Assembly (NCBI GenBank): GCA_947589615.1
Contig: CANQBU010000001.1
Location: forward strand, 1 to 34,866
Direction: 5' to 3'
Length of the DNA: 34,866 bases
DNA from: an uncultured Clostridia bacterium
GTDB taxonomy: Bacteria; Bacillota; Clostridia; Christensenellales; UBA1242
The position numbers were made by a program, and so were the translations under genes. Shown piece after piece: positions 11,859-31,839 of this stretch (position 1 is its first letter; each line of letters opens with the position of its first letter). Below the pieces are notes generated by a model. The model ran no database searches. It was not told where the DNA came from and was given only the letters and a program-made list of their open reading frames with translations.

Positions 11859-14800
11859 ATGACAAAGATTATTAAAAGAACTTTAATATTATTTGCACTT
11901 GTGGCATTAATTTGCCTCCTTTTTCCTATGGTTTATAGCCACTGTGCGTCGAATGCAGCAGTAGAAGGAGTGTCGGGAAACAAAATTGTTTTAACGGGTC
12001 TGATCGATGGCACATATGAACACGCCTTTAAAGACGAAAACAAACAAAGCACTTTAGTTAACAGTAAACTTGATGATATACAAGATAAATATTATTCAAT
12101 AGTTTCTTCTGGAAAGGGAACAAGCTCAGGCTGGGCGGAATTCAAACCTACAAATGATATGCTTCCTTTCATCGAAAAAGGATTGTTATATGCCGAGGCA
12201 TCTGGTGAAGTGACGGGCAAAAATGGAACAAAAGTTACTATTCAAATTTCATCTGGAGATGCCTTCGATCAGGTAAGTGGTGACAGCGGTGAAATAAATA
12301 CTGGTAGAATTCAGGTAAAAAGCGGTCAAAATATACGATTTACTTTTTCGACATCGTCGACAAACGGCAAAAACAATTTTACATTAAGCCTTCCTACAAT
12401 TCATATTTATACAATTATAAATTCGATTACATTGAATGAGGAATCGCGAATTGTATATCCTGGCCAAATTATAAATATTAGCGCATTCAATGATGTAACT
12501 TCTCTTCCAAAATCAGAAGGAAACTTCATGAGCTTTTCAAAAATTAACCACAAAATAGAGATTGATGTTACATCTGGAGGAAACTATGTTAAGCTATTGG
12601 ATACTGCCAGCCCATCTCTTGTAATTTTAAGCAACGCTCCAAGTGGAGCGGTTATAAAATTCAGAGTTTATTCGAAGAAGACATCATATAGCTCTGAATT
12701 GATATATTCGTCAAATGAAGCATCATTTACTGTTAATGCAAATCAAGTTGCTGTTAGCGTCCAAACGGATTTTGACGATCACCCATTCATTGATGGCGAT
12801 GGATTACTTTACACTCCAGGAAAAAGATTTACTCTTAGAGTCAGCCAAGATCCTGATTTCCAGTTCTTAGGCTGGTATGGCTTAAATGATAACAATGAGG
12901 AAGTTTTATTATCTGAAGCAGACTACCTTGTTTCCAATGCTTACGGACAGGTCATTTATGCAAAATTCATAAAGTCGGTAACAATTAAGCAAATTATAGT
13001 TCCCGATAAAGTTTATGATAAAACCACAGCTATACCTCAAGAACAGATTTCGGCAATATTTGATGGCGTTGAAAGCAAGCACGATGTAAAACTGCTCGGA
13101 AGCGAATTTGCTTTCGGTGATGCCAACGCGGGAGATAATAAACTCATTGTTCCAATCGAGGATGATATTACGGCAGAAGATATAACTTTAACAGGCGCAA
13201 ATGCCGGACTTTATACTTTAAAAGCGCAAATCTTTTCAGCTTCTTACTCCAATTCTTACGGAAGAATTTTAAAAAGAGATGCACTTGTTATTCCTGAAAA
13301 TACTCAAAAACAATATGGTTATACAGACCCTTCATTTAATTATACTGTTAAAAATGTTTTAGATGGGGACACAATTGTTGGAGATTTGGGAAGGTTATCT
13401 GGCGAAGAAATTGGAACTTATCCTTTTAGTCAAGGCAATCTTGGACTACGAAACCCTAATTACAATGTGACCATTGAAAGCAGTTCATACTTTGAGATCA
13501 TTCCAAGGGAATTATCACTTGAAAATGTAATTGTTGAAGAAAAGATTTATGACCAAACGACAATGGCACAAATTAGTGCAAGTTTGAGAAATATTTTTAA
13601 CAATGAGGATGTGTATGTTTCAGTTGAGGGCGAATTTGTTTCGCCTAATGCTGGGAATGTTGAAGTGTTAATTACAGATGCAAAACTTTTCGGAGAAGAT
13701 AAAGAGCATTACACACTTGTTCAGTATTCTCAAAAACTTTTCGGTCAGATAAACCCAAGCCCTATTGATGTGCAAGCCGAGGAGGCATCAGCGATTTATG
13801 GAGATAAAATTATCTTTAATTACATGGTGACCGGGCTGTATGATGGAGATGAATTAAGCGGTGAGCTCGCGATTAAAGACAAAAATGTTGGTAAGCATGA
13901 AATAACCGAAGGAACACTTGGAAACAGCAATTATTATATTGAAAATTTCACATCGGCAATTTGCACAATCACTCCAAGGGAAATTCAAGTTTATGCAGAC
14001 AAGATGTCAAAGGTTTACGGAGATGAGGACGATGAATTAACTTATGCCACTGAAAATATGGTTGAGGGCGATTCATTACAGGGCAAACTTTCAAGACAAG
14101 ATGGCGAAGATGTCGGAGTTTATGAGATTGAAATAGGAGATTTAAATAATTCAAATTACATTATTTCTTTCACAAAGAATGAGTTTATAATAACTGAAAG
14201 ACTAATTGAAACAGTGATAGAATTTTTGGATAAAGAATATGACGGAACAAATAAGGTAAAATATAATGTAGAATATAAAAATAATGTTAAAAATGAATCT
14301 TTCAATTTAGTTCTTGAAGCATCATTATCAAGACAGGACTGCGGAACCGCGACAGTAGATTACAAAATTCCTTCTGTGGATTATTCGGGCACAAATTATA
14401 TATTTACTTATCAATTTAAAAATTCTCAAATCCAAATTTTGAGAAGACAAGTAAACATTTTTGTCGATGATATTAGCAAGACATATGGCGATGGTGATCC
14501 TGAATTTACATATTCGGTTAGGAATTTAATTGGAAATGACACATTAGATTTGACAATAAACAGGGAGGACGGCGAGGTAGTCGGACAATATGGATATAGC
14601 ATGAAGGGCGACTACTCAGAGTCGTATCCAAATTATGCCATAACCTTGGTTGAATCTTATTTTAAAATTCTTCCTAGACAAGTAAAGGTTGAGATAGGTG
14701 CATTCTCAAAAGTTTTTGGCGACGAAGACCCTGAAATAAAATATGAAATTATAGATAACTTTTGCTTTAATGATACAAGAGAAAGCGTTGTTGACGGCAA

Positions 14801-18549: not shown

Positions 18550-20586
18550 ATGAGTCAACTTGCATTGAAAAGTATTAATGAATTATTGGGAAAGAATTAT
18601 TTTATTCCCAGTTATCAAAGAGGTTATAGGTGGGAAAAACGTCAAGTTGTCGATTTGCTTGATGACTTGTATTCTTTCATAGGCGACAAAAATAAAGGAG
18701 AAAATTCCTTTTATTGCCTTCAACCAATAGTGGTCAAGGAATGTGATAAGGAAATAGCAAGAGAAACAATAAATTTAAGCAATCTAACTGATGATTGCAT
18801 AGGACCCTGGTTTGAGGTGATAGATGGTCAGCAGCGTCTTACCACATTATATTTGCTTTTTAAATATTTGATGGAAAGTAATGAATTTTGTGATATGGTA
18901 AGAGAGTATGGTGACCTTTATAAAATATTTTACCAGACGCAACATGGCTACAATGAATGTATAGAGAAGCCTCAAATTCCTCGAAGCGAAACTCCCAATG
19001 ATTTTTATATTACAAGGGCGTATGAGGCGATAAAAAATTGGTTTGAATCTTTCAGCGAAAGTAAACAAAAAGAGCATGTTAAATCCTTGTTTAAGACCTT
19101 TTTGTTAAACAATAGCGAATCGTCATCAATTATAAAATGCGGCTATGCACAGGTTATTTGGTATGAAGTGGATAAAGATGTAGACCCGATAAAAACTTTC
19201 ACTCGCCTAAACATAGGGAAAATTCCTCTAAGGAATGCTGAACTTATTAAGGCGTTGTTTTTGCAGAAAAGGGGTAAATCAGTTTCTTCTGATGTTCAAC
19301 AGATAAACATTGCAAAGGAATGGGACCAAATTGAAGCAAGTTTGCAAGAACCTCGATTTTGGGCATTTTTGAACAAGGATTTAAGGGAAATTCCAAATCA
19401 CATTGAGTTTATCTTTGATGTTATATTTGCAGTTGAGGGAAACAAGATAAAGGACGGGCTTAAAGATATAGAATATAAAAAGCTTAGAGAACAAAATCTC
19501 GGCTTAAGCGATAAAAAACTGATGCAAGAAGCAGAAAATTTGGCGGAGGGCAAGTTCAATGATATGTTTGGGACAGACGAGTTTGCATCTTTCAGATTTT
19601 TCAGCACAAAGTTTAAAAATCCAACGCGTCAAGATATTGAAAGCGAATGGAATATGGTGCGTGAATATTATGAGACCTTTTCGGAGTGGCAAAATAATCC
19701 GCTTTGGTATCACTATATTGGCTTTTTAATTTATTGCGATGAGCCAATTATAGATATCTTTAATCTTTACAAGGGCAAAACAAAAAATGAGTTTAAACAA
19801 AGTTTAATAAACAGAATAAAGGAGCGACTGGCGGTTTGGGTTAAAAGCTTAAATGACGGCTTATATGAACTTACAAATGAAAAAGGCGAGCCAGTAATTT
19901 ATAGTAATAAAAATAGAAAAAAATTAAGACAAATTTTGGTGTTATACAATATTGAATACATAATTCAAAAGAATGCACAATTAAAAAAGAGTTATGTTAT
20001 TTTCCCTTTCGACCTATTTAAGGAGCAGCAGTGGGATATAGAGCATGTTGACTCTTTTACAACAAACCCTCTTACTGATAAATGTCAACAAAAGGAATGG
20101 GTGGCTACAAGTTTAAATGGTCTTAAAGACTTTGGGATAAATTATACCGAGACAACGAGAATTTTAAAAGAAGAGAAGGAAAAACTTGAAAGCTTTTTGT
20201 CTGAGGATAATTCCTCAGTAAAAATTGAAGATGTAATGTGGATCTTGTCCAAATTGGCAGATGAATATCTGCCTACCGAAGAGGTCGAAAAGGATATCAA
20301 AAATTCAATCGGCAATCTTACACTACTTAATTCAAGTATAAACAGAAGTTACGGGAATGACATTTTCCCTTTAAAGAAAAGAACTATCACCCAAAAAGAT
20401 GCCGATGGAGAATTCATTCCTATTTGCACTAAAAATGTGTTTTTGAAAAATTTTATCGATGTTAACAATTCTCCAATTTCGTGGAGCGAACGGGATATGA
20501 AATGTTATCAGAAAAATATTATAGAGGTTATCTATAAGTTCTTAAAAAAGGATGGAGAAGGGGGAAATAATGGCAGAGAAATTTAG
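18550..20586 (+). CDS. DUF262 + DUF1524 protein (GmrSD / BrxU-like type IV restriction enzyme family)
   Basis: 678 aa. N-terminal DUF262 / ParB-like motifs IPSYQRGYRWEKRQVVDLLDDL and DGQQRLTTLYLL. C-terminal His-Me finger (DUF1524) motifs WDIEHVDS ... IGNLTLLNSSINRSYGNDIFPLKK. SD AAAGGAGAG. Confidence 0.85.
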   Translation: MSQLALKSINELLGKNYFIPSYQRGYRWEKRQVVDLLDDLYSFIGDKNKGENSFYCLQPIVVKECDKEIARETINLSNLTDDCIGPWFEVIDGQQRLTTLYLLFKYLMESNEFCDMVREYGDLYKIFYQTQHGYNECIEKPQIPRSETPNDFYITRAYEAIKNWFESFSESKQKEHVKSLFKTFLLNNSESSSIIKCGYAQVIWYEVDKDVDPIKTFTRLNIGKIPLRNAELIKALFLQKRGKSVSSDVQQINIAKEWDQIEASLQEPRFWAFLNKDLREIPNHIEFIFDVIFAVEGNKIKDGLKDIEYKKLREQNLGLSDKKLMQEAENLAEGKFNDMFGTDEFASFRFFSTKFKNPTRQDIESEWNMVREYYETFSEWQNNPLWYHYIGFLIYCDEPIIDIFNLYKGKTKNEFKQSLINRIKERLAVWVKSLNDGLYELTNEKGEPVIYSNKNRKKLRQILVLYNIEYIIQKNAQLKKSYVIFPFDLFKEQQWDIEHVDSFTTNPLTDKCQQKEWVATSLNGLKDFGINYTETTRILKEEKEKLESFLSEDNSSVKIEDVMWILSKLADEYLPTEEVEKDIKNSIGNLTLLNSSINRSYGNDIFPLKKRTITQKDADGEFIPICTKNVFLKNFIDVNNSPISWSERDMKCYQKNIIEVIYKFLKKDGEGGNNGREI

Positions 20587-22900
20587 TTTTAAGGATTTGC
20601 TTACACGGCCTATTCAATTGGTCGGCGGGGGAAGCGTAAAAATCGATAAAATCTCAATACCACTTTTGCAACGGGATTATGCTCAAGGCAGAATGTTCTT
20701 TAATGAAAAAACGGGAGAATACAAGTTTAATCTTGCCGGCGAGAAATTTATTGAAGAAATTTTTTCCACTCTTTTATCTTCCGATGACAAGGGGCTTGAA
20801 CTTGACTTTATTTATGGTTCAATTGATGAGGAAAGACCTGAGAAAGATGATGAAAATAAGGGGAATACAAATATTTTAAGCCCCCTTGATGGTCAGCAGC
20901 GCTTGACTACTCTTTTCCTCTTGTATTGGTTTATTGGCGGGGCAGAATTAGATGAAGAAGGCAAGTCAGATTTGTTGACCTCGCTTGAAAAATTTACATA
21001 TTTAACACGGACAAGCTCCAATGTCTTTTGTGCAAGCCTTGTGGAAGAATTGAAGCATTCAAACATTGATTTTAAAGGTGCAGAAGACATCAGTTTGCAA
21101 ATTAAAAACCTCTCATGGTTTCATGATGTATATACTTTAGATCCTACTATTGTGTCAATGCTTAATATGCTAAATAAAATACAGTCGCTGTACAGGGAAA
21201 GAGAATGCCAAAATGTATTTGGCAATTTGGAGAGAATGAAATTTTACATTCTGCCCCTAAAAAATTTTGAACTTACTGAAGAGCTTTATGTAAAAATGAA
21301 TGCTCGCGGCAAGCAATTGACGGATTTTGAAAATTTTAAAGCCGATTTACAAAAGTGGCTGCAATCACTAAACCTTCCAGAGAAGGAGTATCGAAAAAAT
21401 ACCACATTGCCTTATGACATGTATTTTATAAACAAAATGGATAATGAATGGCTACAGTGTCTATGGAAGGCAGGGAATGGAAGCGAAAATAGAAATTTCG
21501 ATTCTCTATTTTTAAAATTCTTCTATGATTATCTTTTAAATTATCATATTTTAGATTATAAAGATAATTATCAAAAACTGGACAAACAAAGTGACTATAA
21601 TGCTTTAAATGAAACTCGATATTTGGGCTTTTCAATCTTTGAAAAATTTTTAAAAAAAGGCTCGATGCTTGATAAGATTGAAATTGTGCTAGACAATATT
21701 TCCCAGCACTATGAAGATATTCTTAAGGCTTGCCAACCGGTGTGGAGCAGTGGAAAAATTCTATTTAATATATTTTCGCAAGATATGCAGTTAAAGGACA
21801 GGACAATATTTTGCGCTTTGGTTTTATATTTGACAAAGTATGGGTATGACGAAAAGGGCTTAAAAAAATGGATGCGTGTCGTATGGAATATTGCTGAAAA
21901 TGCCAACATCGATAGCGTTGCTGTAGTTGTCGGCGTAAACAAATTATTTGCAGAACTTGTGGAATATGCGGGCGATATTTATGCAAATCTTGCCGACGAA
22001 ACAAATATAATAACTTCAACTCAGGCAGAAGAGTTTGTTGCTGAAGAAAGATTAAAAGCCGGGCTTATAATGACTGACCCCGCTTGGGAGGAAAGTCTTA
22101 TCATCGCTGAAGGAAATTCCTTTTTTAGAGGCAATATAAGTTTTCTTTTGCCAGAAGAGGTAGAGGCGAAAGATATTGACAGGGGAGAATTTGAACACCG
22201 CTATGAAATGGCAAAAATATTCTTTGATGAAAAGGGTATCTGTGATGCTTATAGCAAGAATGGTCATCTTTTCCTCAGAGCGCTATTAAGCAGATATGAC
22301 GATTTGGGCAAAATAAAATATCATATCGCGGATAAAGATGAAAGAGAGCATTCTTTAAAACACATGCTTTCATCGGACAAAGTGGTGCGCAGGGCAATTT
22401 ACGAATGGTTTTCACTTGAGGACGAAGATAAAATTCATTCTAAACTTGTCGAAGAAGTGGCAAAGGCTTCTCCTATCAAAGATGTCTTTGACCGAAAACT
22501 CCACGAAGAACTTTACAAGTCAACAAATCTAATAAACTGGATGCAGGAGACTGGGGCAATAAGATATAAAGACGATTGCATTTCAAAGCCAAACAGCCCT
22601 ATTTATCAAATTTATGTTAGGGGTTACAGAAACGAGATAATTAAACGCTTAATTGAAGAGGGTTGGAAATGTAACAATCAGTGCAGCATAAATGAAGGGA
22701 AGGATAAAATTCCATACTTTTGGCCAAGCAGAGAAATTAATGTAATAAAAGAGGAAGCCGATAGGCAAATTATTTGCACATTTGATAGGGAAAATATCAG
22801 AATCGGCGAAGGTCAATATAATTATATAGATAATGTTAAAAGCAAAGATGATATCGATGCTTGCATCGAATGGATAAAAGAGCAAGAAAAGAAGTTGTAA
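20570..22900 (+). CDS. Second DUF262 domain protein with a long C-terminal region of unknown function
   Basis: I place the start at MAEKFSF (20570), with GAAGGGGGA upstream, overlapping the previous gene by 17 nt. Motifs IPLLQRDYAQG and DGQQRLTTLFLLYW. I could not recognise an E-H ... GNL-LL ... N nuclease motif with an intact His. Confidence 0.78.
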   Translation: MAEKFSFKDLLTRPIQLVGGGSVKIDKISIPLLQRDYAQGRMFFNEKTGEYKFNLAGEKFIEEIFSTLLSSDDKGLELDFIYGSIDEERPEKDDENKGNTNILSPLDGQQRLTTLFLLYWFIGGAELDEEGKSDLLTSLEKFTYLTRTSSNVFCASLVEELKHSNIDFKGAEDISLQIKNLSWFHDVYTLDPTIVSMLNMLNKIQSLYRERECQNVFGNLERMKFYILPLKNFELTEELYVKMNARGKQLTDFENFKADLQKWLQSLNLPEKEYRKNTTLPYDMYFINKMDNEWLQCLWKAGNGSENRNFDSLFLKFFYDYLLNYHILDYKDNYQKLDKQSDYNALNETRYLGFSIFEKFLKKGSMLDKIEIVLDNISQHYEDILKACQPVWSSGKILFNIFSQDMQLKDRTIFCALVLYLTKYGYDEKGLKKWMRVVWNIAENANIDSVAVVVGVNKLFAELVEYAGDIYANLADETNIITSTQAEEFVAEERLKAGLIMTDPAWEESLIIAEGNSFFRGNISFLLPEEVEAKDIDRGEFEHRYEMAKIFFDEKGICDAYSKNGHLFLRALLSRYDDLGKIKYHIADKDEREHSLKHMLSSDKVVRRAIYEWFSLEDEDKIHSKLVEEVAKASPIKDVFDRKLHEELYKSTNLINWMQETGAIRYKDDCISKPNSPIYQIYVRGYRNEIIKRLIEEGWKCNNQCSINEGKDKIPYFWPSREINVIKEEADRQIICTFDRENIRIGEGQYNYIDNVKSKDDIDACIEWIKEQEKKL

Positions 22901-23006: not shown

Positions 23007-23978
23007 TTAATTTTGAATATATAATTTTTCTTGTTTTAAGAGTGGATAAGATTTTAAACTGTCATTATTCAAATCTTCTTTATTCATATCCACTCCTACA
23101 ATTTGAGAGTTGTTGTAGGTGGTGTAATAGTAAATGCATTTGTCGGTGTTGCAGCATGAAGAATAAATGGTATGCTCAAAGCCCTTCTCAACCTTGCAAC
23201 AGCCTTTTTGTTGTTCGACAGAGGTTAAGATGTGGAAAAACTGACTGACGCTTTCCACTTCGCTGCTTCCTTGTAAAGAGTTTAATTTTGTAAATGCCGC
23301 CTTTACAAATCGCGATGCCGAAGACAGGTCTCCGGGCAACCCTATTCCGCCCATGCCTCGACTATATGGCGTAAGATTTAAGTTTTCGCAAAATCTGTTA
23401 ATTGGCTCATTGCGTGAAACATTCATGTAATTGCTAAGATGGATAAGATGATAGTCAAAAGTCGGGTTGTTTGTGAGAATTCCTACGGGGTTATCATAAA
23501 CTTTAAGCCCCTCGCTTAAAGGCTCAACTACGATGCAATCTTTTTTGTCGGCAATAATCCAGTGCAAAGGTGAGTGAGGTAATTCATTTGAAAAATCTTC
23601 ATCACAAATATTTAAGTTTGAAAGGATTTTCCGTGCCTCGCTTACATCTTTACATTTTGCCAAAATGTAAGGGATAAACTCAAATGGTGCGACATTATCT
23701 TTTGAGCGAATTTTCTTTGAATAAAAGGCGTTCTTGGGGAAATTTAATCCCGCGATGCTAAGCCCTTTTTCGTTTGTTGCGTCATAATAAAGAGGGTAGT
23801 CATTTTGCACAAATGCCATGCCAATCATCGCATAGTGCTTGTCACATTTACGCATATGACGAAAATCGAACGGGAAGTTTCGAGGGGTGATTGTCACCGT
23901 CTCATTGTATGAAAACTCATAGTCCAAATTTCGTCCAAAATAAAAATCTTTACTAAAAAAAGTTGCTGCTGTGCACAT
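23007..23978 (-). CDS. Choloylglycine hydrolase / bile salt hydrolase family (Ntn linear amide C-N hydrolase)
   Basis: 323 aa. Begins MCTAATF (nucleophile Cys2), followed by FGRNLDYEFSYNETVTITPRNFPF, which is typical of the BSH/PVA family. SD AAGGAG. Confidence 0.88.
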   Translation of the reverse strand: MCTAATFFSKDFYFGRNLDYEFSYNETVTITPRNFPFDFRHMRKCDKHYAMIGMAFVQNDYPLYYDATNEKGLSIAGLNFPKNAFYSKKIRSKDNVAPFEFIPYILAKCKDVSEARKILSNLNICDEDFSNELPHSPLHWIIADKKDCIVVEPLSEGLKVYDNPVGILTNNPTFDYHLIHLSNYMNVSRNEPINRFCENLNLTPYSRGMGGIGLPGDLSSASRFVKAAFTKLNSLQGSSEVESVSQFFHILTSVEQQKGCCKVEKGFEHTIYSSCCNTDKCIYYYTTYNNSQIVGVDMNKEDLNNDSLKSYPLLKQEKLYIQN

Positions 23979-24079
23979 AAAAAACTCCTTATATAAAATT
24001 ATAGCAAATCATTTTCAAAAATGAAAACAAATTGCAAACAAATCTACACTTGAAATTAAAAGTTGTCGGAACAAAGGGT

Positions 24080-24108
24080 TTAACAAAATTTGCAGTTTTA
24101 CATAAAAT
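24080..24108 (+). promoter_or_regulatory. Candidate promoter for the collagen-like gene
   Basis: TTAACA (24080-24085), 17-nt spacer, TAAAAT (24103-24108). It lies 22 nt upstream of the ATG at 24131 and just before the SD GAGGAG. Confidence 0.5.
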
Positions 24109-24130
24109 GTATTCTGTGAGGAGAAAACAA

Positions 24131-24715
24131 ATGATTTGCAATAACTTTCAAAACAACTGGCAATGTCAAAATCTTTATCCTTCTCCTACAGGTATATGTC
24201 CTCCTCAGACACCTACTGGAATAAGCATTGTAGGACCTACTGGACCTACAGGTGCAACTGGTGCGACAGGTGCTACAGGACCAACTGGTGCTACAGGAGC
24301 AACTGGTGCCACAGGTGCAACAGGGAGTTCTGCTTTAAGTTCGATTGCCTTTTTCACCGCGCCAAGCGTAACAAACGCAGAGCCAACACTTTTGCTTGAA
24401 AACTCATTTCCTATAGGTCAGACAGATATAACATTTGCTGGAGGGAATGGGGTTAATTTGACGACAGGCACATATATCATGAGATTTGGCTCGACTGTGA
24501 CAAGCACAAACGGGACTTTGCCTACCATATCCATTTCGGTTGATAATGTGGTCGAAAGCGGAACGATAAGAACGGGGGTTGGATTTGGCTCTGCAAATCT
24601 GACCGGTGACGCATTAATAACCATAAACACTCCTTCGCTTTTGACATTCAATGTAACGGTCGCTCCCGAACTAACTTACGATGAAAACTTTTTAATAATT
24701 ACAAAATTGGAATAA
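24131..24715 (+). CDS. Collagen-like triple-helix repeat protein (BclA-like) with a Cys-rich N-terminus and a beta-rich C-terminal domain
   Basis: I place the start at MICNNFQ (24131), with GTGAGGAGA upstream; the ORF-track TTG start at 24032 has no SD. Ten uninterrupted G-x-T triplets (GPTGPTGATGATGATGPTGATGATGATGAT), followed by a roughly 125-aa Thr/Ser/Gly/Asn-rich domain. Confidence 0.82.
   Translation: MICNNFQNNWQCQNLYPSPTGICPPQTPTGISIVGPTGPTGATGATGATGPTGATGATGATGATGSSALSSIAFFTAPSVTNAEPTLLLENSFPIGQTDITFAGGNGVNLTTGTYIMRFGSTVTSTNGTLPTISISVDNVVESGTIRTGVGFGSANLTGDALITINTPSLLTFNVTVAPELTYDENFLIITKLE
24233..24322 (+). repeat. GXT collagen-like coding microrepeat (10 triplets of 9 nt each)
   Basis: ggacctact ggacctaca ggtgcaact ggtgcgaca ggtgctaca ggaccaact ggtgctaca ggagcaact ggtgccaca ggtgcaaca. 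This stretch is locally GC-rich compared with its surroundings. Confidence 0.9.
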
Positions 24716-24746
24716 AAGACTTAAGATTTTGACTATAAAATAAAAG

Positions 24747-24778
24747 AAAAGATTGAGGAAAATTCTTCAATCTTTTTT
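24747..24778 (+). terminator. Rho-independent terminator of the collagen-like gene
   Basis: Stem aaaagattgagg (24747-24758) pairs with cttcaatctttt (24765-24776) with one G-U pair, followed by further T residues. Confidence 0.6.
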
Positions 24779-24808
24779 AATGACAAATAATTATCTAAAA
24801 TGACTATG

Positions 24809-25163: not shown

Positions 25164-25194
25164 AAATATGTATGAGATGCTAGGAGGAATATTG

Positions 25195-26106
25195 ATGTTT
25201 CAAAAAAAGAAAAGGCAGGTAATTAAGTTTGAGCAAAACTTATGCCATGCAAAAGTTGATGACAATGATATTTTGTTTGTCCGCGTTTCCGACCAAATCA
25301 CAGATAAAGATGCGTTATTGGAAGTCCCATTAACCCATATTGCGTATGTGATAAAGGGTGGCGGATATGGCAAAGTGTATAAGAGCGGAACATATCCCGT
25401 TTTTGAGGATAACAAGGAAGTTAAAAATTGGCAACAGGGAATTTCTGTTGAAATAATTTACATGCCAAAAGACCCAAATGTTCCAATCAAATGGGGGACA
25501 AACGAAAAGATAAAGTATCGCGATGAGGTAAGCGGAAAGGTTGTGGGAGTTGCCGCGCATGGTGTATTCGATGTCTCAATTTCAAATCCCGAACAATTTT
25601 ACAGAAAGGTTGTTGGGGCAAGGCGGGAATTCAGCCTCAGAGAATTTCAAGACAGATTTAGTGCCAATGTTTTAAGTGAGTTCACCGCAATATTTTTTCA
25701 AACGATTGATGAACTTAAATTGACAAGTGACAAATTTGATGCAAATAAGAAAAGCATTCAGGAAAAAACGGGGAGACTGCTAAACAGAATATTTGAAGAT
25801 GAATGGGGAGTAAGTTTAAATAATTTCATCATTCAATACATAGGCGTTTCTGATATGGAGGTGGCAACTCGTGAAGAGGAAAAGCCTATTGAAAAACAAG
25901 AAGAGAAGCCAGTTCAAGCAAGATTTTGCCCATACTGCGGGGCACAGGTTCGTGAAGATGATGTCTTTTGCTCAAAGTGCGGAAAGAAATTGGAGAAAGA
26001 CAGCATAACTTGCCCATCATGTGGCAAAAGCAATAATATTTATGCCCAATTCTGCGTATATTGCGGCAAAAAAATAAGCGAGGGGAATCATGTGGAAAAA
26101 GAATAA
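25195..26106 (+). CDS. SPFH / Band_7_1 (YdjI-like) domain protein fused to a C-terminal double zinc ribbon
   Basis: I place the start at MFQKKKRQ (25195), with TAGGAGGA upstream. The N-terminal domain matches the Band_7_1 pattern (...VIKGGGYGKVYKSGTYPVF..., IKWGTNEKIKYRDEVSGKVVGVAAHGVFDVSISNPEQFYRKVVG). After an EEKP-rich linker come two C-x2-C...C-x2-C ribbons (CPYCG..CSKCG and CPSCG..CVYCG). Confidence 0.68.
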   Translation: MFQKKKRQVIKFEQNLCHAKVDDNDILFVRVSDQITDKDALLEVPLTHIAYVIKGGGYGKVYKSGTYPVFEDNKEVKNWQQGISVEIIYMPKDPNVPIKWGTNEKIKYRDEVSGKVVGVAAHGVFDVSISNPEQFYRKVVGARREFSLREFQDRFSANVLSEFTAIFFQTIDELKLTSDKFDANKKSIQEKTGRLLNRIFEDEWGVSLNNFIIQYIGVSDMEVATREEEKPIEKQEEKPVQARFCPYCGAQVREDDVFCSKCGKKLEKDSITCPSCGKSNNIYAQFCVYCGKKISEGNHVEKE

Positions 26107-26407
26107 TGACAAAGGTTTAAATGACAGAAACTTGATTGAAGAATGCGAAAAGGCAATAGACACTTTAATAATTCTCGGCGAGGCAGACGATGAACTTGTT
26201 TCAAATTTGCGAGTTATTAAAGAAAAAGTCAAATATCTTGTTCCAAGCAATGATGATAAGATTTACGAATTTGACAGGAGAATTAAAAATCTTATTGACG
26301 ACATGCGAATAGCGCTTGTCAAGGCGGACAGAGAGTCATTGAAGAAAATTAAACTGATTTTGGCGGATTTGAGGCTTGCAATAGTAGAGCGAAATTCAAG
26401 GATTTAA
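26090..26407 (+). CDS. Small (105 aa) predicted all-helical protein of unknown function
   Basis: The ATG overlaps the previous gene by 17 nt, with GAGGGGA upstream. Heptad-like charged/hydrophobic pattern. No family recognised. Confidence 0.55.
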   Translation: MWKKNNDKGLNDRNLIEECEKAIDTLIILGEADDELVSNLRVIKEKVKYLVPSNDDKIYEFDRRIKNLIDDMRIALVKADRESLKKIKLILADLRLAIVERNSRI

Positions 26408-26417
26408 AGGTGAAGTT

Positions 26418-27008
26418 ATGTGGTTTTTTAAAAGTAAATATGAAAAGTTATCTCGAGAAGAAGTGGTCGATGCGATTTGCAAACTTGAAAGTGAGACAAA
26501 AAGTATTGAAGAAGGGTTGACCTCAAAGCAGGAAGAGATAGACGAACTTATGGAAAAAGGGAGGACAGAAAAGAATAAAGAAGTCAAACTTTTCTATGCC
26601 AAAAAGATAAATGCACTTAAAGCGGAAAGAGAACAAAGTGTTCAAAGGGCATTGTATCTTATGTATAATGTTCAACTTATGAACAAACTTAAAACCTCAA
26701 TAGATGACAATCAATTCTTTAAAACCTCTTCAAAAATTCCTCTTAATAAGATGCTGGGCGACCAAAAAGCACTTGCAAAATTTTTAAACAAAACGCTGGG
26801 GACAAGGACAAAGGCGGAAGATGTGCTTACGTCAGCAGATGAAGTTTTCAAAACGCTTGAAGAGTCATACGATAAAAATGAAAGCATTTATGGGGTCAAT
26901 GACCAAGATGACGCACTGCTTTCTATGTTTGAGACAGAGGAGCAGTTAAACGAAGAAGAAGAGATGTTTACAGAAAGTGAACAAAAAGCCGGCAGAGGCG
27001 AAAATTAA
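26418..27008 (+). CDS. ESCRT-III / Snf7-like (PspA-Snf7 superfamily) coiled-coil protein, paralog 1
   Basis: 196 aa. The N-terminus MWFFKSKY resembles the MWSSLFGW membrane-insertion motif of yeast Snf7. The helical hairpin region aligns by eye with Snf7 (AICKLESE...KGRTEKNKEVKLFYAKKINALKAEREQ versus AIVRLREH...KGNKVMAKNALKKKKTIEQ). Acidic C-terminal tail. Fold assignment not verified. Confidence 0.55.
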   Translation: MWFFKSKYEKLSREEVVDAICKLESETKSIEEGLTSKQEEIDELMEKGRTEKNKEVKLFYAKKINALKAEREQSVQRALYLMYNVQLMNKLKTSIDDNQFFKTSSKIPLNKMLGDQKALAKFLNKTLGTRTKAEDVLTSADEVFKTLEESYDKNESIYGVNDQDDALLSMFETEEQLNEEEEMFTESEQKAGRGEN

Positions 27009-27022
27009 AAGGAGAAAATTTT

Positions 27023-27580
27023 ATGTCAGCAAATAAAGAAATTGAAAAAAGAATGTTAATTAAGAGAACGATTTCATCAATGGAAAAACAAATCCAAAGA
27101 CTTGAAAATCAAAAGAAAACCTATATTGATGCGGGCAGACAGGCAAAGCAAAAAGGGTTAACAGCACAATATAACCTTGCTTTATCAGGGCTTAGAATGA
27201 CGATAAGCCAGCAGCGTCGAGTTTATGAAATGAAACTCAATTTTGAGATAACTTCGCAAATGAAGGATATGGCAAAGATGACCACCGATTTCCTTTCGGG
27301 AATGAGTTCTTTAAGTAAAGATATGATGAAACTCACAAAAGAGTCGGAGTTTAACAAAGTCCAGAAGCAATTCTCTGAAGCGATGGTTGGAATGGAAGTT
27401 CAAACTGAAAGAATGGAGGATTTCCTTGAAGAAACTCAGTCAACCTTTTCAAGCAACCTCAATAATGAAGAGGAGAGAAGCGAACTTGATGCCATGATGA
27501 CAAACGAGGCGGCAATCGGAACGGGAGTCGATGGCGAGATTGAAAAAGAACTTGAAGAACTTAAGAAAAAAATGTTTTAA
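27023..27580 (+). CDS. ESCRT-III / CHMP2(Vps2)-like coiled-coil protein, paralog 2, with a MIM1-like C-terminal helix
   Basis: 185 aa. By-eye parallels to CHMP2A: QIQRLENQKKT versus RERQKLETQEKK; AKQKGLTAQYNLALSGLRMTISQQRR versus AKQGQMDAVRIMAKDLVRTRR; QKQFSEAMVGMEVQTERMEDFLEE versus MMEFERQAEIMDMKEEMMNDAIDD; terminal EIEKELEELKKKMF versus DLEERLKNLRRD. SD AAAGGAG. Confidence 0.6.
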   Translation: MSANKEIEKRMLIKRTISSMEKQIQRLENQKKTYIDAGRQAKQKGLTAQYNLALSGLRMTISQQRRVYEMKLNFEITSQMKDMAKMTTDFLSGMSSLSKDMMKLTKESEFNKVQKQFSEAMVGMEVQTERMEDFLEETQSTFSSNLNNEEERSELDAMMTNEAAIGTGVDGEIEKELEELKKKMF

Positions 27581-27594
27581 TTTAAAGGAGAACT

Positions 27595-28908
27595 ATGCCT
27601 GATATCAGTTTTATGAATGAAATGTATGAAATTTATTATCGCAAAGCAAAGGAGTGCTATGACAGAAAGGACTTAATGCTTGCAAAGCGATATTATTTTC
27701 TTGCAGCAGAACAAATGTTAAAAATGGCTCAAAACAGCGAGAAACAACTCCAAAAGGCAAGATTCAGTCGGGCTAAAAGCCTTATAGATATGGCGGAGAG
27801 TATTCAAGCGGGAAAGAGAAAAATAGCAAAAGATGAGCCACAGGAAGAAGAGGTCAGCGTTTCACAGAATGAAAAAATATCTCTTGAAGAGGCACTTTCA
27901 AGACTTGCAAGGCTTGAAGGGCTTGAAAAAGTAAAAAGACAGGTTTGCGATTGGATTGACCAAATCAAAGTTTTTCAGATGAGGAAGGAAAGAGGAATGT
28001 CCGTTCCTGACATTTCCTATCACATGGTGTTCACTGGTAATCCGGGGACTGGAAAAACCACGCTCGCAAGACTTATGGCACAAATCTATTGCGCGCTTGG
28101 GATTTTAAGCAATGGAAATCTTGTTGAAGTTGATAGAAGTGGACTGGTTGCGGGCTATATCGGTCAAACTGCCGTAAAAACAAAGGAAGCAATCAAAAAA
28201 GCATATGGCGGAGTGCTTTTTATTGATGAGGCATATTCGCTTGCAAACGGCAATACAAACGATTTTGGTCAGGAAGCAATCGAAGCAATTTTAAAGGAGA
28301 TGGAAGACAAGCGAGATGACCTTGTTGTAATTGTTGCGGGATATGACGAGCCGATGGAAAAGTTTATAGCTTCAAACCCAGGTTTAAAATCAAGATTTAA
28401 AAATTTCTTCCATTTTGATGATTATAATGGTGAGCAATTATTCAATATTTTCCAGAAATTCTGCGAAGAAAATGAATATAGCATTGACTATTCGGCGGCG
28501 GAAGTTTTGAAAGAATATTTCCAATATCTATATGACCACAGAGATAAAAATTTCGGCAATGCCAGAGATGTGAGAAATTTCTTTGAAAATGTTGTGACAA
28601 TTCAATCCAAGCGAGTTGTTAATCTGCCTCAGCCATCGAATGAGGATTTACAATTAATAAAAATCGAGGACTTGCCAAGCTATGTAGAAGAGTTATTGAG
28701 AAATCAAGAAAATGACTATGACAGTTACGATTTTGACGATGGCGAGCCAGAAGAGAATGATATTCCTGAAATTGAAACGCTAGATGGGATTGAAAACTCC
28801 GAAGAGAGGAGCGAGTTAGGAGAGAATGATGATAAAGAAGAAATAGACGAAAACAATAAAGAGACAAATAAGCAAACAGAGGACATTTCGACCAAAAACA
28901 AAAAATAA
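27595..28908 (+). CDS. AAA+ ATPase of the SpoVK/CbbX/EccA clade with a MIT-like (TPR-like helical) N-terminal domain and an acidic C-terminal tail
   Basis: 437 aa. Walker A GNPGTGKTT (28036-28062) and Walker B VLFIDEAYSL. Also VVIVAGYDEPMEKFIASNPGLKSRF. Near-collinear with B. subtilis SpoVK as I recall it (HMIFKGNPGTGKTTVAR...GGILFIDEAYSL...AGY...NPGLQSRF). N-terminus YRKAKECYDRKDLMLAKRYYFLAAEQMLKMAQ...RAKSLIDMAESIQ resembles the Vps4 MIT helices. Confidence 0.9.
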   Translation: MPDISFMNEMYEIYYRKAKECYDRKDLMLAKRYYFLAAEQMLKMAQNSEKQLQKARFSRAKSLIDMAESIQAGKRKIAKDEPQEEEVSVSQNEKISLEEALSRLARLEGLEKVKRQVCDWIDQIKVFQMRKERGMSVPDISYHMVFTGNPGTGKTTLARLMAQIYCALGILSNGNLVEVDRSGLVAGYIGQTAVKTKEAIKKAYGGVLFIDEAYSLANGNTNDFGQEAIEAILKEMEDKRDDLVVIVAGYDEPMEKFIASNPGLKSRFKNFFHFDDYNGEQLFNIFQKFCEENEYSIDYSAAEVLKEYFQYLYDHRDKNFGNARDVRNFFENVVTIQSKRVVNLPQPSNEDLQLIKIEDLPSYVEELLRNQENDYDSYDFDDGEPEENDIPEIETLDGIENSEERSELGENDDKEEIDENNKETNKQTEDISTKNKK

Positions 28909-28925: not shown

Positions 28926-31709
28926 ATGAAAGAAAGCACAAGATATTTGAGATGTAAAAACTGTGAAGGGGAAATGGATGTGCGTGAGGCAAAAAATGGG
29001 GTGCTAACCTGCCCATACTGCCGCACGATTGTTGTTTTGCCACGCAACGACTCATCTGATAAGACAAAAGCATATTTGAACAGCGGGAATCAAAACCTCG
29101 AATTGGGGCGATTTGATGAAGCTTACATAATGTTTGGAAAGGCGGTCGAAGAAAATGCGCAAGAGCCAGAAGGTTATTTCGGAATGGCACTTTCTAAGGC
29201 AAAAATCCAGTATTTAAAGGATTTGGTCAACAATAAACTTCAACCTATTTGCTTTGAGATAACTGAGAATAAATTCACCGATGATAAAAATTATCAAAAG
29301 GCGCTAGAACTTTCAAATCCCGATCAGAAGGAAATTTACGAGGAAAAAGGTTGTGCAATCGATAACATAAAAAGTAAATTTTTTCAGCTTAAAAGAAACA
29401 ATGTCGAGTATGACACATTTATATGCTGTAAGGTCACAAACGAAAATGGCGGAAACACGCAAGACAGCATGAATGCACTTAAAATTTATCATGAACTTAA
29501 AGATGCGGGATATAAGCCATTTTATTCGGAAGAGATTTTGAGGAATTTTGTGGGTGAAGACTATGAGGCAAATATTCTCTATGCCCTTTATTCAAGTGGA
29601 AGCATGCTTATGGTTTGCAGTGATGAGGAATATTTGCAAACAAAGTGGGTCAAAAATGAGTATACTCGCTTTATAACCTTACTCGAGCAAAAGGAAAAAC
29701 AAAGAGGAAGCATTGCATTTGTCTACAACGGCAAGCCTATTGAAGAATTTCCAGGCATTCAAGGCAAAGTTCAGGGGATAGATTTTTCAAAATTTAACGC
29801 ACTAAATCAAATAATTTCATTTGTAGAAAAATTTGCGGGGTCAAATAGATTTCTGGATTTTCAAAGAAAGGAATATGGCAAGAATAATGTTCAAAAGAAA
29901 AAGACTATAAAACGAGAAATTCAAAAACGCAATTTAAGTGTATCAGTAAGCGAAGCGGTCTCAATTTCAGACGAAGCAAAATTAAGGAATGCCCAAAAAC
30001 TGCTTGAGAAAGGGGATTTTGAAAATGTTTGCAATTTCTGCAATGAGATTTTAATGAGCAATAAATTCTACGGCAAAGCCTACTGGACATTGTTTTTGGC
30101 ACAAAATAAATGCAGAAGCAATGAGGAATTTATAAAGTCCACCACGCCAGTTGCAAACTTTTCTGACTTTGAGAAGGCAATCTCTGCAACAAGTGATAAA
30201 AGCGAGAGAGAAAAATATTATCAGTGCCTTAAAAATCGTATTCTTGAAAGTGGCGAGAAGGGGGATTTTGATGAATTTGTCGTTCTCCCTGAAGTAGAAG
30301 AGAAAGACCTGGCGGAAGCAATAGATAAAGTTTATGAAACTGCCAAAGAGCATGTCGATAAAGACCTTTTTGAAGCGGCAATTTCAGTGGAAAAGCACAC
30401 AAACAGATATGTAAGAATGAATCTTGGCTTTTTAAAACAATTGCCTATTGAGCAAAGAAAGCCATATTATGAGAATATTTTAAATGTCGATGCTGCAAAT
30501 CCCGAAGCACTATACGAAAATTTCAATATTGATAACAATCTATTAAGTGATGAGGCGGTTTTCGAATTTTACAGTGACAAGAAAAATCATGACACAATTG
30601 AAAACACATTATTTGCCTATGGCTTTAATAAATTTGCTTCCGATGACCTTAATAGAATTGTCCAAAATGGCGGCGACACAAAAAAGGGTTGCAGTATCTA
30701 TGACCTTATATTAAGTATGGTTCCAAAAGGCAAAAACAAAATTTTCGCCTACTATTTAAGCCAGGCAATAAGTTTCCTTTTTGCGGGAGAAAGGAAAAAA
30801 GGTCAATTTTATGTTGATTTCGAGCAACTTGAAAAATATAATAACGCTCTTATTTCAGTCGATCAATATAACTGCAATTGTTATGTAAATCGAATGCTTA
30901 TTGATAATAAGATAAAAAATCCGCTAGAACTTATGGACTGCCGGTCACTTTACGATTTTGCCGATTTCCGCCTTGCGGTCAACACATATGCCGAGCGTTA
31001 TCCAAATAAGACTAATGAATATATGCAATATGATGATGAACTCAAAGAGATAAAACAAATCCTTGCCACGCCAAAAATAAAACAGTATGTGCTTGACAAT
31101 TATGTCCCGAAAATGGAGTGGCTAAGTGGGAAGGCAAGGACGGACATTATTGAAATGCTGGACGGGAAAATGCAGAAGAGCGTAGGAAGTATACTCCGAA
31201 AAAATGAGTGCAAAGAATTAAAGGAACTTTGCAGTCTGCAAAAAGACGTCACAAAAGATGAAGACTTCGTTATGGCAAGAGATATTGCAAATGTGTTGTC
31301 AAGTCAAAAACTTCCTTCAAAAACACCTACAGAAACGGTTTCTTCACAGGCTGCCGCCCAAGCGGAAGAGGAGCCTGCACCTAAAGAAAGTGAGAGCCCA
31401 GATGAGGGGCAGACAAAAGATAAACAAGAAGTGCTAGAGCAAAAAGAGAGCGACAGGGAAATTAACGAAGTCACTCAAAATAATGAAGAGCAGAAAGAGG
31501 AAGAAAAAGAGGAAATAAGACTTGTAGATGAGTTAAATTCATTAAGCGAGCGCCAGCCTCAAGCGGCAAAAACAAATTATGAAACGCGAAGAAAAGAGGA
31601 AAGGCAGAGAATGAGAAAATTGACAATAAAAACAATATTATGGACCCTTTATGGCGTTGGACTCTTTTTCGCGATTGGAACACTTTTACTTTTTATTCTT
31701 TTAAAATAA
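28926..31709 (+). CDS. Tail-anchored multidomain protein: N-terminal zinc ribbon, TPR-like helices, TIR domain, long helical-repeat region, acidic low-complexity linker, C-terminal TM
   Basis: 927 aa. Zinc ribbon CKNC..x17..CPYC. TIR-like block at about residues 160-305 (nt 29403-29840): YDTFICCKV..., AGYKPFYSEEIL..G.DYEANILYALYSSGSMLMVCS...TKWVKNEYTRF, with the candidate catalytic Glu at 29658-29660. C-terminal TM ILWTLYGVGLFFAIGTLLLFILL (about 31632-31706). Confidence 0.78.
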   Translation: MKESTRYLRCKNCEGEMDVREAKNGVLTCPYCRTIVVLPRNDSSDKTKAYLNSGNQNLELGRFDEAYIMFGKAVEENAQEPEGYFGMALSKAKIQYLKDLVNNKLQPICFEITENKFTDDKNYQKALELSNPDQKEIYEEKGCAIDNIKSKFFQLKRNNVEYDTFICCKVTNENGGNTQDSMNALKIYHELKDAGYKPFYSEEILRNFVGEDYEANILYALYSSGSMLMVCSDEEYLQTKWVKNEYTRFITLLEQKEKQRGSIAFVYNGKPIEEFPGIQGKVQGIDFSKFNALNQIISFVEKFAGSNRFLDFQRKEYGKNNVQKKKTIKREIQKRNLSVSVSEAVSISDEAKLRNAQKLLEKGDFENVCNFCNEILMSNKFYGKAYWTLFLAQNKCRSNEEFIKSTTPVANFSDFEKAISATSDKSEREKYYQCLKNRILESGEKGDFDEFVVLPEVEEKDLAEAIDKVYETAKEHVDKDLFEAAISVEKHTNRYVRMNLGFLKQLPIEQRKPYYENILNVDAANPEALYENFNIDNNLLSDEAVFEFYSDKKNHDTIENTLFAYGFNKFASDDLNRIVQNGGDTKKGCSIYDLILSMVPKGKNKIFAYYLSQAISFLFAGERKKGQFYVDFEQLEKYNNALISVDQYNCNCYVNRMLIDNKIKNPLELMDCRSLYDFADFRLAVNTYAERYPNKTNEYMQYDDELKEIKQILATPKIKQYVLDNYVPKMEWLSGKARTDIIEMLDGKMQKSVGSILRKNECKELKELCSLQKDVTKDEDFVMARDIANVLSSQKLPSKTPTETVSSQAAAQAEEEPAPKESESPDEGQTKDKQEVLEQKESDREINEVTQNNEEQKEEEKEEIRLVDELNSLSERQPQAAKTNYETRRKEERQRMRKLTIKTILWTLYGVGLFFAIGTLLLFILLK

Positions 31710-31726
31710 ATTTTAACAAATTAAAT

Positions 31727-31764
31727 AAAAAAGCATATTGATTTTATCGTTAATATGCTTTTTT
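31727..31764. terminator. Bidirectional hairpin terminator between the TIR operon and the convergent ABC exporter
   Basis: aaaaaagcatatt (31727-31739) / aatatgctttttt (31752-31764): 13-bp AT-rich stem with a GC core and a 12-nt loop. Confidence 0.5.
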
Positions 31765-31839
31765 AATATGTAAAGTTATTATATTTTTTCGCCCTTTTTA
31801 TCGGCTATATAGAAAAATTATCTTTTCAGTTAAATTATG

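Follow-up and report, generated by a model that had tools for sequence, protein, structure and literature searches.

Here, we describe the gene for a 927-residue TIR-domain protein that closes a six-gene operon in an uncultured Clostridia bacterium (Christensenellales; UBA1242). The stretch analysed, called the window below, comprises positions 1 to 34,866 (34,866 nucleotides, forward strand) of contig CANQBU010000001.1 in assembly GCA_947589615.1. Judged by homology and by predicted structure, the gene encodes a genuine membrane-anchored TIR-domain protein, much as proposed in the original prediction, which had been made from the DNA letters and had described a zinc ribbon, TPR repeats and a TIR domain tethered by a C-terminal anchor. 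Additionally, we show that the family to which this protein belongs is linked, by conserved gene neighbourhood, to a SamI/YdjI-like SPFH-zinc-ribbon protein and to a protein containing the domain of p105, the small second product of the operon. The explanation that we favor, at somewhat better than even confidence, is that the window protein is an integral-membrane, cytoplasm-facing TIR enzyme, most likely a nicotinamide adenine dinucleotide (NAD+) glycohydrolase or cyclase, which acts as an SPFH-linked membrane client.

The open reading frame (ORF) starts with ATG, 8 nt downstream of an AAGGAA ribosome-binding site. Per-residue model confidence is given below as pLDDT (predicted local distance difference test). 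The gene and its parts are these:

28926..31709, plus strand: the whole TIR gene, encoding zinc ribbon, TPR-like unit, TIR domain, TPR-like solenoid, acidic linker and tail anchor
28944..29036, plus strand: N-terminal four-cysteine zinc ribbon (residues 7-37; CKNC at 10-13, CPYC at 29-32)
29058..29396, plus strand: TPR-like helices, a beta-hairpin and two more helices (residues 45-157; model pLDDT >90)
29403..29840, plus strand: TIR domain (residues 160-305; Pfam TIR_2, Foldseek and profile matches)
29658..29660, plus strand: codon of Glu245, putative catalytic glutamate of the W-V-K-N-E motif (conservation, RUN1 alignment)
29964..31310, plus strand: TPR-like alpha-solenoid (residues ~347-795; all helices, model pLDDT mostly >90)
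31311..31478, plus strand: disordered, acidic linker rich in Glu, Gln, Lys and Ser (residues 796-851, ~56 residues; pLDDT <50, composition)
31455..31703, plus strand: single long C-terminal helix (residues 844-926; model of residues 331-927)
31635..31703, plus strand: transmembrane anchor, the last 23 residues of the C-terminal helix (residues 904-926; hydropathy)

Identification of the TIR domain rests on concordant lines of evidence. Pfam TIR_2 (PF13676) matches residues 178-293 with 39.0 bits against a gathering score of 28 (E 1.3e-9), and the same family is present in all 94 homologues listed, the closest of which, P0001, is 99% identical. Two AlphaFold models were used, one of residues 1-340 (pLDDT 89.4, predicted template modelling score 0.84) and one of residues 331-927 (pLDDT 84.9). 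Residues 160-305 are modelled as a flavodoxin-like TIR fold at a pLDDT of ~95, with five strands at 164-168, 198-200, 226-230, 263-267 and 283-286. When this part is searched against the PDB with Foldseek, only TIR domains are returned, at probability 1.00 (MyD88, SARM1, TIR-STING, SPARTA TIR-APAZ, RPP1), with target-normalised template modelling scores of 0.6-0.7 against the isolated TIR-domain entries (MyD88 and SARM1 TIR). The original prediction had picked out four hallmarks in this block and had named a family search and a structure prediction as ways to check it; both agree with it, and every motif sits where it was placed and falls on the matching element of the model. YDTFICC (residues 162-168, nt 29409-29429) lies on beta-A (164-168), PFYSE (residues 198-202, nt 29517-29531) covers beta-B (198-200) and leads into the BB loop, SMLMVCS (residues 226-232, nt 29601-29621) lies on beta-C (226-230), and WVKNEY (residues 241-246, nt 29646-29663) begins alpha-C (240-254).

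The glutamate of this last motif, Glu245, is the residue on which a catalytic role would depend. In an alignment of 77 homologues, from which all conservation figures for residues in this protein are taken, it is invariant, together with D163, F165, K169, T178, D180, F199, G210, Y213, I217, A220, M227, W241, V242 and N244. A profile of the TIR domain alone, searched against PDB sequences, matches TLR15/TLR2 (E 4e-5), RUN1 (E 8e-4) and TIR-STING (E 0.015), and its alignment pairs Glu245 with the glutamate of the 'WCLDE' motif in RUN1, in agreement with the catalytic position first assigned to it. In PDB entry 7s2z the aligned position is Ala; we take this entry to be the RUN1 E100A catalytic mutant. 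The TIR-only profile was used in place of a single-sequence search of the PDB, which gave nothing relevant; a profile of the whole N-terminal module was dominated by TPR and LRR matches. Among listed metagenomic members of the family, tandem paralogues included, the pattern WV[KR]NE[WY] is retained in 109 of 112, suggestive of an active site under constraint and not just of a scaffold. From these sequence features we infer that the window protein probably cleaves NAD+. It is also distinct from Thoeris by the searches made: there is no ThsB-type PADLOC match and no ThsA-like gene among the five neighbours. A search of NCBIfam likewise yielded no informative family, and current annotation of the family reads merely 'TIR domain-containing' or 'TPR repeat' protein.

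The remainder of the protein is largely helical. At the N-terminus, all four cysteines of the proposed zinc ribbon are conserved in at least 90% of homologues; the ribbon is modelled as four short strands and has a weak match to Zn_Ribbon_TF (Pfam). Residues 45-157, with three TPR-like helices, pack together with the ribbon and the TIR domain as a single compact unit, and their profile matches consensus TPR proteins, with TPR_2/TPR_8 found sub-threshold at residues 48-78. The solenoid that follows the TIR domain resembles SKI3, OGT, SPY and consensus TPR superhelices (Foldseek probability 1.0), such that the anticipated TPR content is seen on both sides of the TIR domain. Helical repeats and an acidic linker do separate the TIR domain from the anchor; the repeats had been put at ~550 residues, and the model gives ~450. 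The only hydrophobic segment is, as expected, at the very end of the chain: the 19-residue Kyte-Doolittle maximum, 2.46, falls on residues ~904-926, and windows starting before residue 898 do not exceed 1.2. Nine Arg/Lys residues precede the anchor (residues 888-902) and a single Lys follows it, in line with a cytoplasmic body at a C-terminal anchor. On the basis of hydropathy, then, the window protein is tail-anchored, with a lone C-terminal transmembrane segment and a cytoplasmic N-terminus. None of the other five operon proteins reaches a hydropathy maximum above 1.15 or offers a candidate transmembrane segment, which makes the TIR protein the operon's only membrane protein.

Within its family, the window protein turns out to be unusual in this respect. 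We compared the TIR domain alone with 1.84 billion cluster representatives at 50% identity and obtained 4,687 matches at E <= 1e-3; 3,543 of these reach E <= 1e-10, and 223 reach E <= 1e-30. The TIR domain begins near residue 155 in almost every one of the 150 best representatives, and therefore the ribbon, TPR-like helices and TIR domain behave as a fixed unit. This is a large, uncharacterised Firmicutes family, in which a constant N-terminal module of ~310 residues is followed by variable TPR, transmembrane and outside domains. When metagenomes were scanned with the N-terminal module, at least 577 relatives came up, and 80 loci, many from human gut, were collected among the matches listed; human and animal gut metagenomes are rich in the family. 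Of 99 complete ORFs listed there, 52 have one transmembrane segment followed by more than 150 residues (e.g., LRR_5 or RCC1), 20 have none, five are tail-anchored like the window protein, and the rest have several. Arg/Lys residues are in excess before the transmembrane segment in 50 of the 52 single-segment relatives, with the reverse bias in none, which places the TIR side in the cytoplasm and the repeat domain outside. The proteins most closely related to that of the window carry three transmembrane segments. Because of this, and because most of the family carries one segment and an outside domain, the tail anchor, correctly recognised in the window protein itself, is a derived and minority state in the family as a whole. 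Tandem arrays of TIR genes are frequent among the listed metagenome loci, with up to five in L049. Two paralogues outside the six-gene cassette, one standing alone and one in a TIR-SPFH-p105-TIR cluster, have a divergent gene for a 69-residue Xre-type helix-turn-helix protein directly upstream (L002:9627-9836, L010:7655-7864); this gene may be a dedicated regulator of TIR paralogues.

In the window, the TIR gene is preceded by five genes on the same strand and followed by a hairpin:

25168..26106, plus strand: first operon gene, encoding a soluble SPFH (Band_7_1) protein with two C-terminal zinc ribbons, SamI/YdjI-like
26090..26407, plus strand: p105, a small helical protein homologous to the cytoplasmic C-terminal domain of multi-transmembrane proteins
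26418..27008, plus strand: p196, a conserved helical protein of no family, kept in all cassette loci whose contig reaches it
27023..27580, plus strand: p185, Snf7-like (ESCRT-III-like) by a sub-threshold match (Snf7 E 5.4e-4)
27595..28908, plus strand: AAA+ ATPase of SpoVK/CbbX/EccA type with an N-terminal helical domain (Pfam AAA, AAA_lid_6)
31726..31765, plus strand: terminator-like hairpin 3′ of the TIR stop codon (17-bp stem, -16.5 kcal/mol, z = -4.8)

The distances between successive genes are -17, 10, 14, 14 and 17 nt, the last being the gap between the ATPase gene and the TIR gene, where a consensus terminator scan found no terminator-like site. The same scan missed the hairpin at 31726-31765 because its stem has few G-C pairs; none of 200 shuffled sequences folds equally well. 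The next gene downstream lies on the opposite strand. Tight spacing, the hairpin and this change of strand together identify the TIR gene as the terminal gene of a tightly packed operon, the position originally ascribed to it. The SPFH product matches Band_7_1 (1.4e-15), DZR and Zn_Ribbon_1 in Pfam, and its highest hydropathy window is 1.15. Its ORF is listed from 25168; an AGGAGGA at 25182-25188 followed by ATG at 25195 suggests that the true start is nine codons downstream.

The SPFH gene is the partner most widely shared with the family. Among the 80 listed metagenome loci, an SPFH gene lies within 3.6 kb of the TIR-family gene in 41, and in 23 of the 29 loci that are at least 12 kb long; it is on the same strand in all 41 cases, and by Pfam these neighbours consist of Band_7_1 plus zinc ribbons. 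A p105-domain protein is found near the TIR-family gene at 45 of 80 loci (22 of the 29 longer ones), and both partners occur at 37 of 80 (20 of 29), leaving only four of the 29 longer loci with neither. In these loci the p105 domain usually belongs to a multi-transmembrane protein encoded between the SPFH and TIR genes. Window p105 aligns with the C-terminal domain of such proteins at an hhalign probability of 94.9% (E 4.2e-8, 91 columns); the relatives at L069:9049-9741 and L049:2908-4326 share the motif RYSDPVS, which reads KYLVPSND in window p105. It is only in the window's own subclade that Snf7-like and AAA+ genes are found near the TIR family. The SPFH-zinc-ribbon protein is thus supported as a better and deeper partner of the TIR family than ESCRT-III.

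Within that subclade, the linkage extends to what we call the cassette (SPFH, p105, p196, Snf7-like and AAA+ genes). Using p185 to fetch loci, which were then annotated with phmmer, we compared 23 species-level genome loci, all from metagenome-assembled genomes of gut Clostridia, including 'Christensenella sp.', Stercoripulliclostridium and Pelethenecus. A TIR-family gene lies directly at the cassette in 17 of the 23, in one of three slots (after the ATPase gene, between p185 and the ATPase gene, or upstream of SPFH), and two loci have two copies. Since the genes flanking the cassette are mostly unshared between loci, adjacency at this frequency points to a conserved neighbourhood rather than an accident of the window genome. 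The loci of P0002 (80% identical) and P0005 (64%) illustrate the point, each keeping the complete six-gene operon between different flanks. The locus of P0024 (L010) has the order TIR, SPFH, p105-like, TIR, with no Snf7-like or AAA gene. A NUDIX gene beside the operon in L001 and L005, considered as a means of clearing ADP-ribose, was set aside as coincidence, because the two proteins are unrelated in position and the association does not recur at other loci or near the window operon.

Clustering of flanking ORFs revealed a second enzyme at the cassette. In 10 of the 23 loci there is a gene for a Trypsin_2 serine protease of ~240-285 residues with a zinc ribbon of its own (L020:12650-13375, L028:12230-13042, L015:7157-7906 and seven more), and five of the six cassette loci without a TIR gene have it. 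When a hidden Markov model of the TIR-family ribbon was run on 2,627 ORFs, the protease ribbons were the best matches outside the TIR family (best E 1.3e-5). A ribbon-bearing enzyme, whether TIR protein, protease or both, is therefore present at 22 of 23 cassettes; the window has only the TIR protein. That the protease takes the same slot in some genomes suggests that the zinc ribbon is a docking element for interchangeable enzymes.

The original prediction also placed the TIR domain where ESCRT-III-like polymers act, and this setting held only in part. For p185, a Snf7 match at E < 0.01 recurs in nine of 31 homologues (best E 2.1e-5), and a profile search of PDB sequences and a comparison with PspA_IM30 gave no match; the term 'ESCRT-III-like' is plausible on sequence grounds for this protein alone. 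Its C-terminus (EIEKELEELKKKMF) holds the invariant residues I173, E176, L180 and K181 and, by eye, is like the MIT-interacting motif of ESCRT-III proteins. The idea that p196 might be a second ESCRT-III protein was not supported. The N-terminus of p196, MWFFKSKY, is a hydrophobic and aromatic tip; by eye it resembles the N-terminus with which yeast Snf7 inserts into membranes, and an assignment of p196 to ESCRT-III has no support from any sequence method. The ATPase is of the SpoVK/CbbX/EccA type (NCBIfam spore_V_K, 1.2e-85). A profile search with its N-terminal 78 residues found no MIT structure, the best matches being Sel1/TPR-like at E ~0.04, and 'Vps4-like' is unsupported as a statement of family membership. 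Most orthologues of this ATPase have ~670-710 residues and include a second, classical AAA domain (e.g., L035:4409-6478, L020:10576-12636). The window protein has 437 residues, and those of L001 and L005 have 394 and 378; in the window there is no remnant of the second domain, and the ATPase ends in an acidic tail. The second AAA domain has been lost in the lineage of the window, L001 and L005.

Several observations weigh against the explanation that we favor. The Snf7 match of p185 itself (20.1 bits over positions 6-153 of 171) is below the gathering score of 27.3, and p196 falls into no Pfam family; a search of 15 of its homologues gave no Snf7 match, and its profile showed no similarity to that of p185. 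SIR2, Macro, SLOG and SAVED domains are absent from the operon genes by Pfam search, which leaves no sensor of a TIR product among them. The metagenome loci are partly redundant, with an effective sample of 18 clusters at 90% identity and six at 70%; SPFH is retained in 13 of the 18 informative clusters and in four of the six. Moreover, the best profile match of the TIR domain is 7ylf, a TLR TIR, and non-enzymatic TLR TIRs also carry the aligned glutamate, such that the W-x-x-x-E motif is by itself insufficient for an NADase call. This bears on the alternative that the TIR domain is a non-enzymatic assembly module, which oligomerises and nucleates or anchors the SPFH/Snf7-like/AAA+ complex on the membrane with no NAD+ chemistry. 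Such a role would agree with the best Foldseek matches, which are MyD88 TIR filaments, as well as with the TLR TIR at the head of the profile search; the operon also needs an anchor, and the TIR protein is its only membrane protein. We nonetheless regard it as improbable. The polar pocket residues D163, K169, T178, D180, W241, N244 and E245 are invariant among sequences that are only 25-50% identical, and the motif is kept in 97% of paralogues, a pattern typical of an active site; alternation with the protease likewise points to an enzyme slot.

It is also possible in principle that an independent, stand-alone TIR gene just happens to follow the cassette. The more distant, full-length paralogues P0010 and P0012 lie among housekeeping genes, not beside SPFH or the cassette, P0014 lies on the same contig as a cassette and 24 kb away from it, and the TIR gene takes different places with respect to the cassette. 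These cases also count among the points against our preferred explanation. Adjacency at 17 of 23 species-level loci with non-conserved flanks, the same-strand orientation of SPFH in 41 of 41 listed cases and the 17-nt gap to the ATPase gene, with no terminator-like site found in it, make incidental adjacency highly improbable. P0014 is full-length, and the cassette on its contig, JAFLVO010000001.1 (L003/L020), has the protease and not a TIR gene.

A broader question is what the system is for. One possibility is a dedicated anti-phage abortive-infection system, in which infection would be sensed at the membrane by the cassette, and the cell would be killed or arrested by the TIR protein or, in other genomes, by the protease. 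There is overlap with the SPFH-client explanation; the difference lies in the commitment to immunity as the role. TIR domains and trypsin-like proteases are typical interchangeable effectors, and here they alternate in the same slot. Further points in favour are the non-conserved flanks of the cassette, the tandemly arrayed TIR paralogues, whose outside domains are highly variable, the pair of GmrSD-type restriction genes found upstream both in the window and in L001, and the existence of TIR/TPR anti-phage systems (bioRxiv 10.1101/2023.05.26.542521). Pulling the other way, the TIR protein has no match at E <= 1 to any PADLOC model, including those for Thoeris, and the neighbours are usually housekeeping genes. 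A phage or plasmid origin of the family was rejected, with no relatives in 50,697 phage records and a single weak match in 72,556 plasmids. The cassette also shows a degree of conservation unusual in an immunity system, with p185 sharing 64-86% identity among more than 300 clusters and, in most comparisons between species, 64-76%. Finally, the closest studied analogue, PspA-SamGHI, is an envelope-stress module. On balance, we view a dedicated immune role as possible and rather doubtful.

How might an SPFH-linked TIR enzyme work? SPFH assemblies control the proteases FtsH and NfeD. With FtsH as client of HflK/C, and SamG/SamH as membrane partners of SamI in B. subtilis, as precedents, we propose by analogy that the TIR protein would be a membrane-embedded client or anchor of the SPFH scaffold. 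At rest, the solenoid, the SPFH assembly or both would hold the TIR domains apart and inactive. Perturbation of the envelope would then let the TIR domains cluster at the inner membrane face. Membrane damage or phage attack may serve as the trigger, as may a ligand in those relatives that carry LRR or RCC1 domains outside. Clustered TIR domains would form composite active sites and cleave NAD+, leading to NAD+ depletion or to a signalling nucleotide, and the Snf7-like and AAA+ proteins may act on the same membrane patch. The outcome would be immunity by abortive infection, stress signalling or both.

Other features of the window lie upstream of the operon. Two GmrSD-type (DUF262/DUF1524) genes, typical of type IV restriction, overlap at 18550-20586 and 20552-22900, 2.3 kb upstream of the operon, and are syntenic in L001. 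A gene of the CBAH bile-salt-hydrolase family is found at 23007-23978 (minus strand). Between it and the operon, positions 24032-24715 encode a small protein with a collagen-like GPTGATGAT repeat, followed by a terminator-like hairpin at ~24745-24782. Two giant genes encode surface-type repeat proteins, one of 2,053 residues at 5685-11846 (Big_2, hyaluronate-lyase N-terminal domain) and the other of 1,722 residues at 11859-17027 (MBG_2, YDG).

Compared with known enzymatic TIR proteins (SARM1, RUN1/RPP1, AbTir, ThsB, TIR-STING, SPARTA), the window protein has the same predicted fold, the W-x-x-x-E motif and a glutamate at the aligned catalytic position. Like SARM1, it combines a TIR domain with an alpha-solenoid and membrane attachment, an arrangement that fits auto-inhibition followed by activation through clustering. 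It differs in the rigid fusion of the TIR domain to a zinc ribbon and TPR-like helices, which is seen in no solved TIR protein matched, and it has no SAM, STING, APAZ/Ago or NB-ARC partner; as an enzyme, it is a putative one. The BcTir/Tpr pair of Bacillus cereus (bioRxiv 10.1101/2023.05.26.542521) is alike by description, with TIR chemistry and TPR repeats that tune NAD+ processing; however, it consists of two soluble proteins and lacks the zinc ribbon, transmembrane segment, SPFH protein and ATPase. With regard to Toll-like receptors, most relatives in the TIR family share a cytoplasmic TIR domain, one transmembrane segment and outside LRR_5 or RCC1 repeats. The order is reversed, though, with the TIR domain N-terminal (type II; 52 of 99 complete listed relatives), the window protein has no outside domain (one residue follows the transmembrane segment), the bacterial TIR looks enzymatic, and no homology is implied beyond the TIR and LRR folds.

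The operon as a whole most resembles systems built around SPFH proteins. In B. subtilis, the soluble SPFH-zinc-finger protein SamI/YdjI is recruited by SamG/SamH, recruits PspA and restrains SamGH signalling (PMC8581546; bioRxiv 10.64898/2026.02.06.704340). There, a soluble SPFH-zinc-finger protein is encoded with membrane anchors and a member of the ESCRT-III superfamily; the window has a soluble SPFH-zinc-ribbon protein too, with the TIR protein as candidate membrane anchor and p185, by its weak Snf7 match, as a putative ESCRT-III-like protein. SamG, like the window TIR protein, has an N-terminal zinc ribbon and a terminal transmembrane segment. The ydjG forward primer encodes MIISYKCPNC (PMC8581546), which puts a zinc-ribbon half-site of SamG/YdjG at the same position as the K-C-K-x-C of the TIR family. 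Unlike PspA-SamGHI, the window operon has an AAA+ ATPase and no PspA_IM30 or TPM-domain SamH was found in it; conversely, SamG and SamH have no TIR domain, and the membrane protein of the window does. SPFH cages such as HflK/C-FtsH and stomatin-NfeD, compared here from genes alone, are similar in that SPFH is encoded with a membrane-tethered enzyme, and a serine protease occurs at 10 of 23 cassette loci. In contrast to these, window SPFH has no transmembrane segment of its own, and the client would be a TIR protein or a Trypsin_2 protease rather than FtsH or NfeD.

Archaeal ESCRT loci, in which SPFH proteins with zinc ribbons also occur (PMC10936438), have Snf7-like, AAA+ and SPFH-zinc-ribbon genes in one operon, as does the window. 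Their study mentions no TIR gene (PMC10936438). Relative to ESCRT-III/Vps4 proper, the window has a sub-threshold Snf7 match and a SpoVK/CbbX-type ATPase, usually with two AAA domains and with MIT undetected. According to a 2025 review, bacterial ESCRT-III systems appear to lack a Vps4-like ATPase (PMC7619361), which gives the cassette a bearing on whether bacteria have ESCRT-III-like systems driven by ATP. In our literature search we found no paper linking a Toll/IL-1R TIR domain to SPFH, ESCRT-III, PspA/Snf7, Vps4 or the ATPase type of the window, nor one doing so in Christensenellales; the 'Tir' of PMC11237479 belongs to the CesT/Tir chaperone and not to Toll/IL-1R. Bacterial TIR enzymes, TIR/TPR defence pairs, PspA-SamGHI and archaeal ESCRT loci with SPFH-zinc-ribbon proteins are already described. 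What appears new, from sequence comparison, is a putative TIR enzyme in a conserved membrane-scaffold context and, with it, the TIR-SPFH pairing.

Finally, these data allow a more tentative view of the family. The TIR proteins, together with the SPFH-zinc-ribbon and p105-domain proteins, could make up a widespread and so far undescribed envelope-surveillance pathway in gut Firmicutes, in which receptor-like TIR NADases, many of them with LRR or RCC1 domains outside, are held in check by an SPFH scaffold; in a Christensenellales-like clade, this pathway would have become wired to an ATP-driven, membrane-remodelling Snf7-like machine that couples membrane damage to NAD+ signalling or cell suicide. 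We offer this as a conjecture that is less likely than the SPFH-client explanation for the window protein itself. Under surveillance of this kind, the window protein, which has no outside domain, would report membrane state only, and the TLR-like topology of its receptor-like relatives would have arisen independently. TIR enzymes play a central part in the immunity of animals, plants and bacteria, and their switching-on at membranes is known mainly for eukaryotic receptors. If the link described here is functional, it would join SPFH/ESCRT-III membrane maintenance to NAD+-based TIR signalling, two fields that have not yet met, and would provide a tractable bacterial model for membrane-triggered TIR activation.

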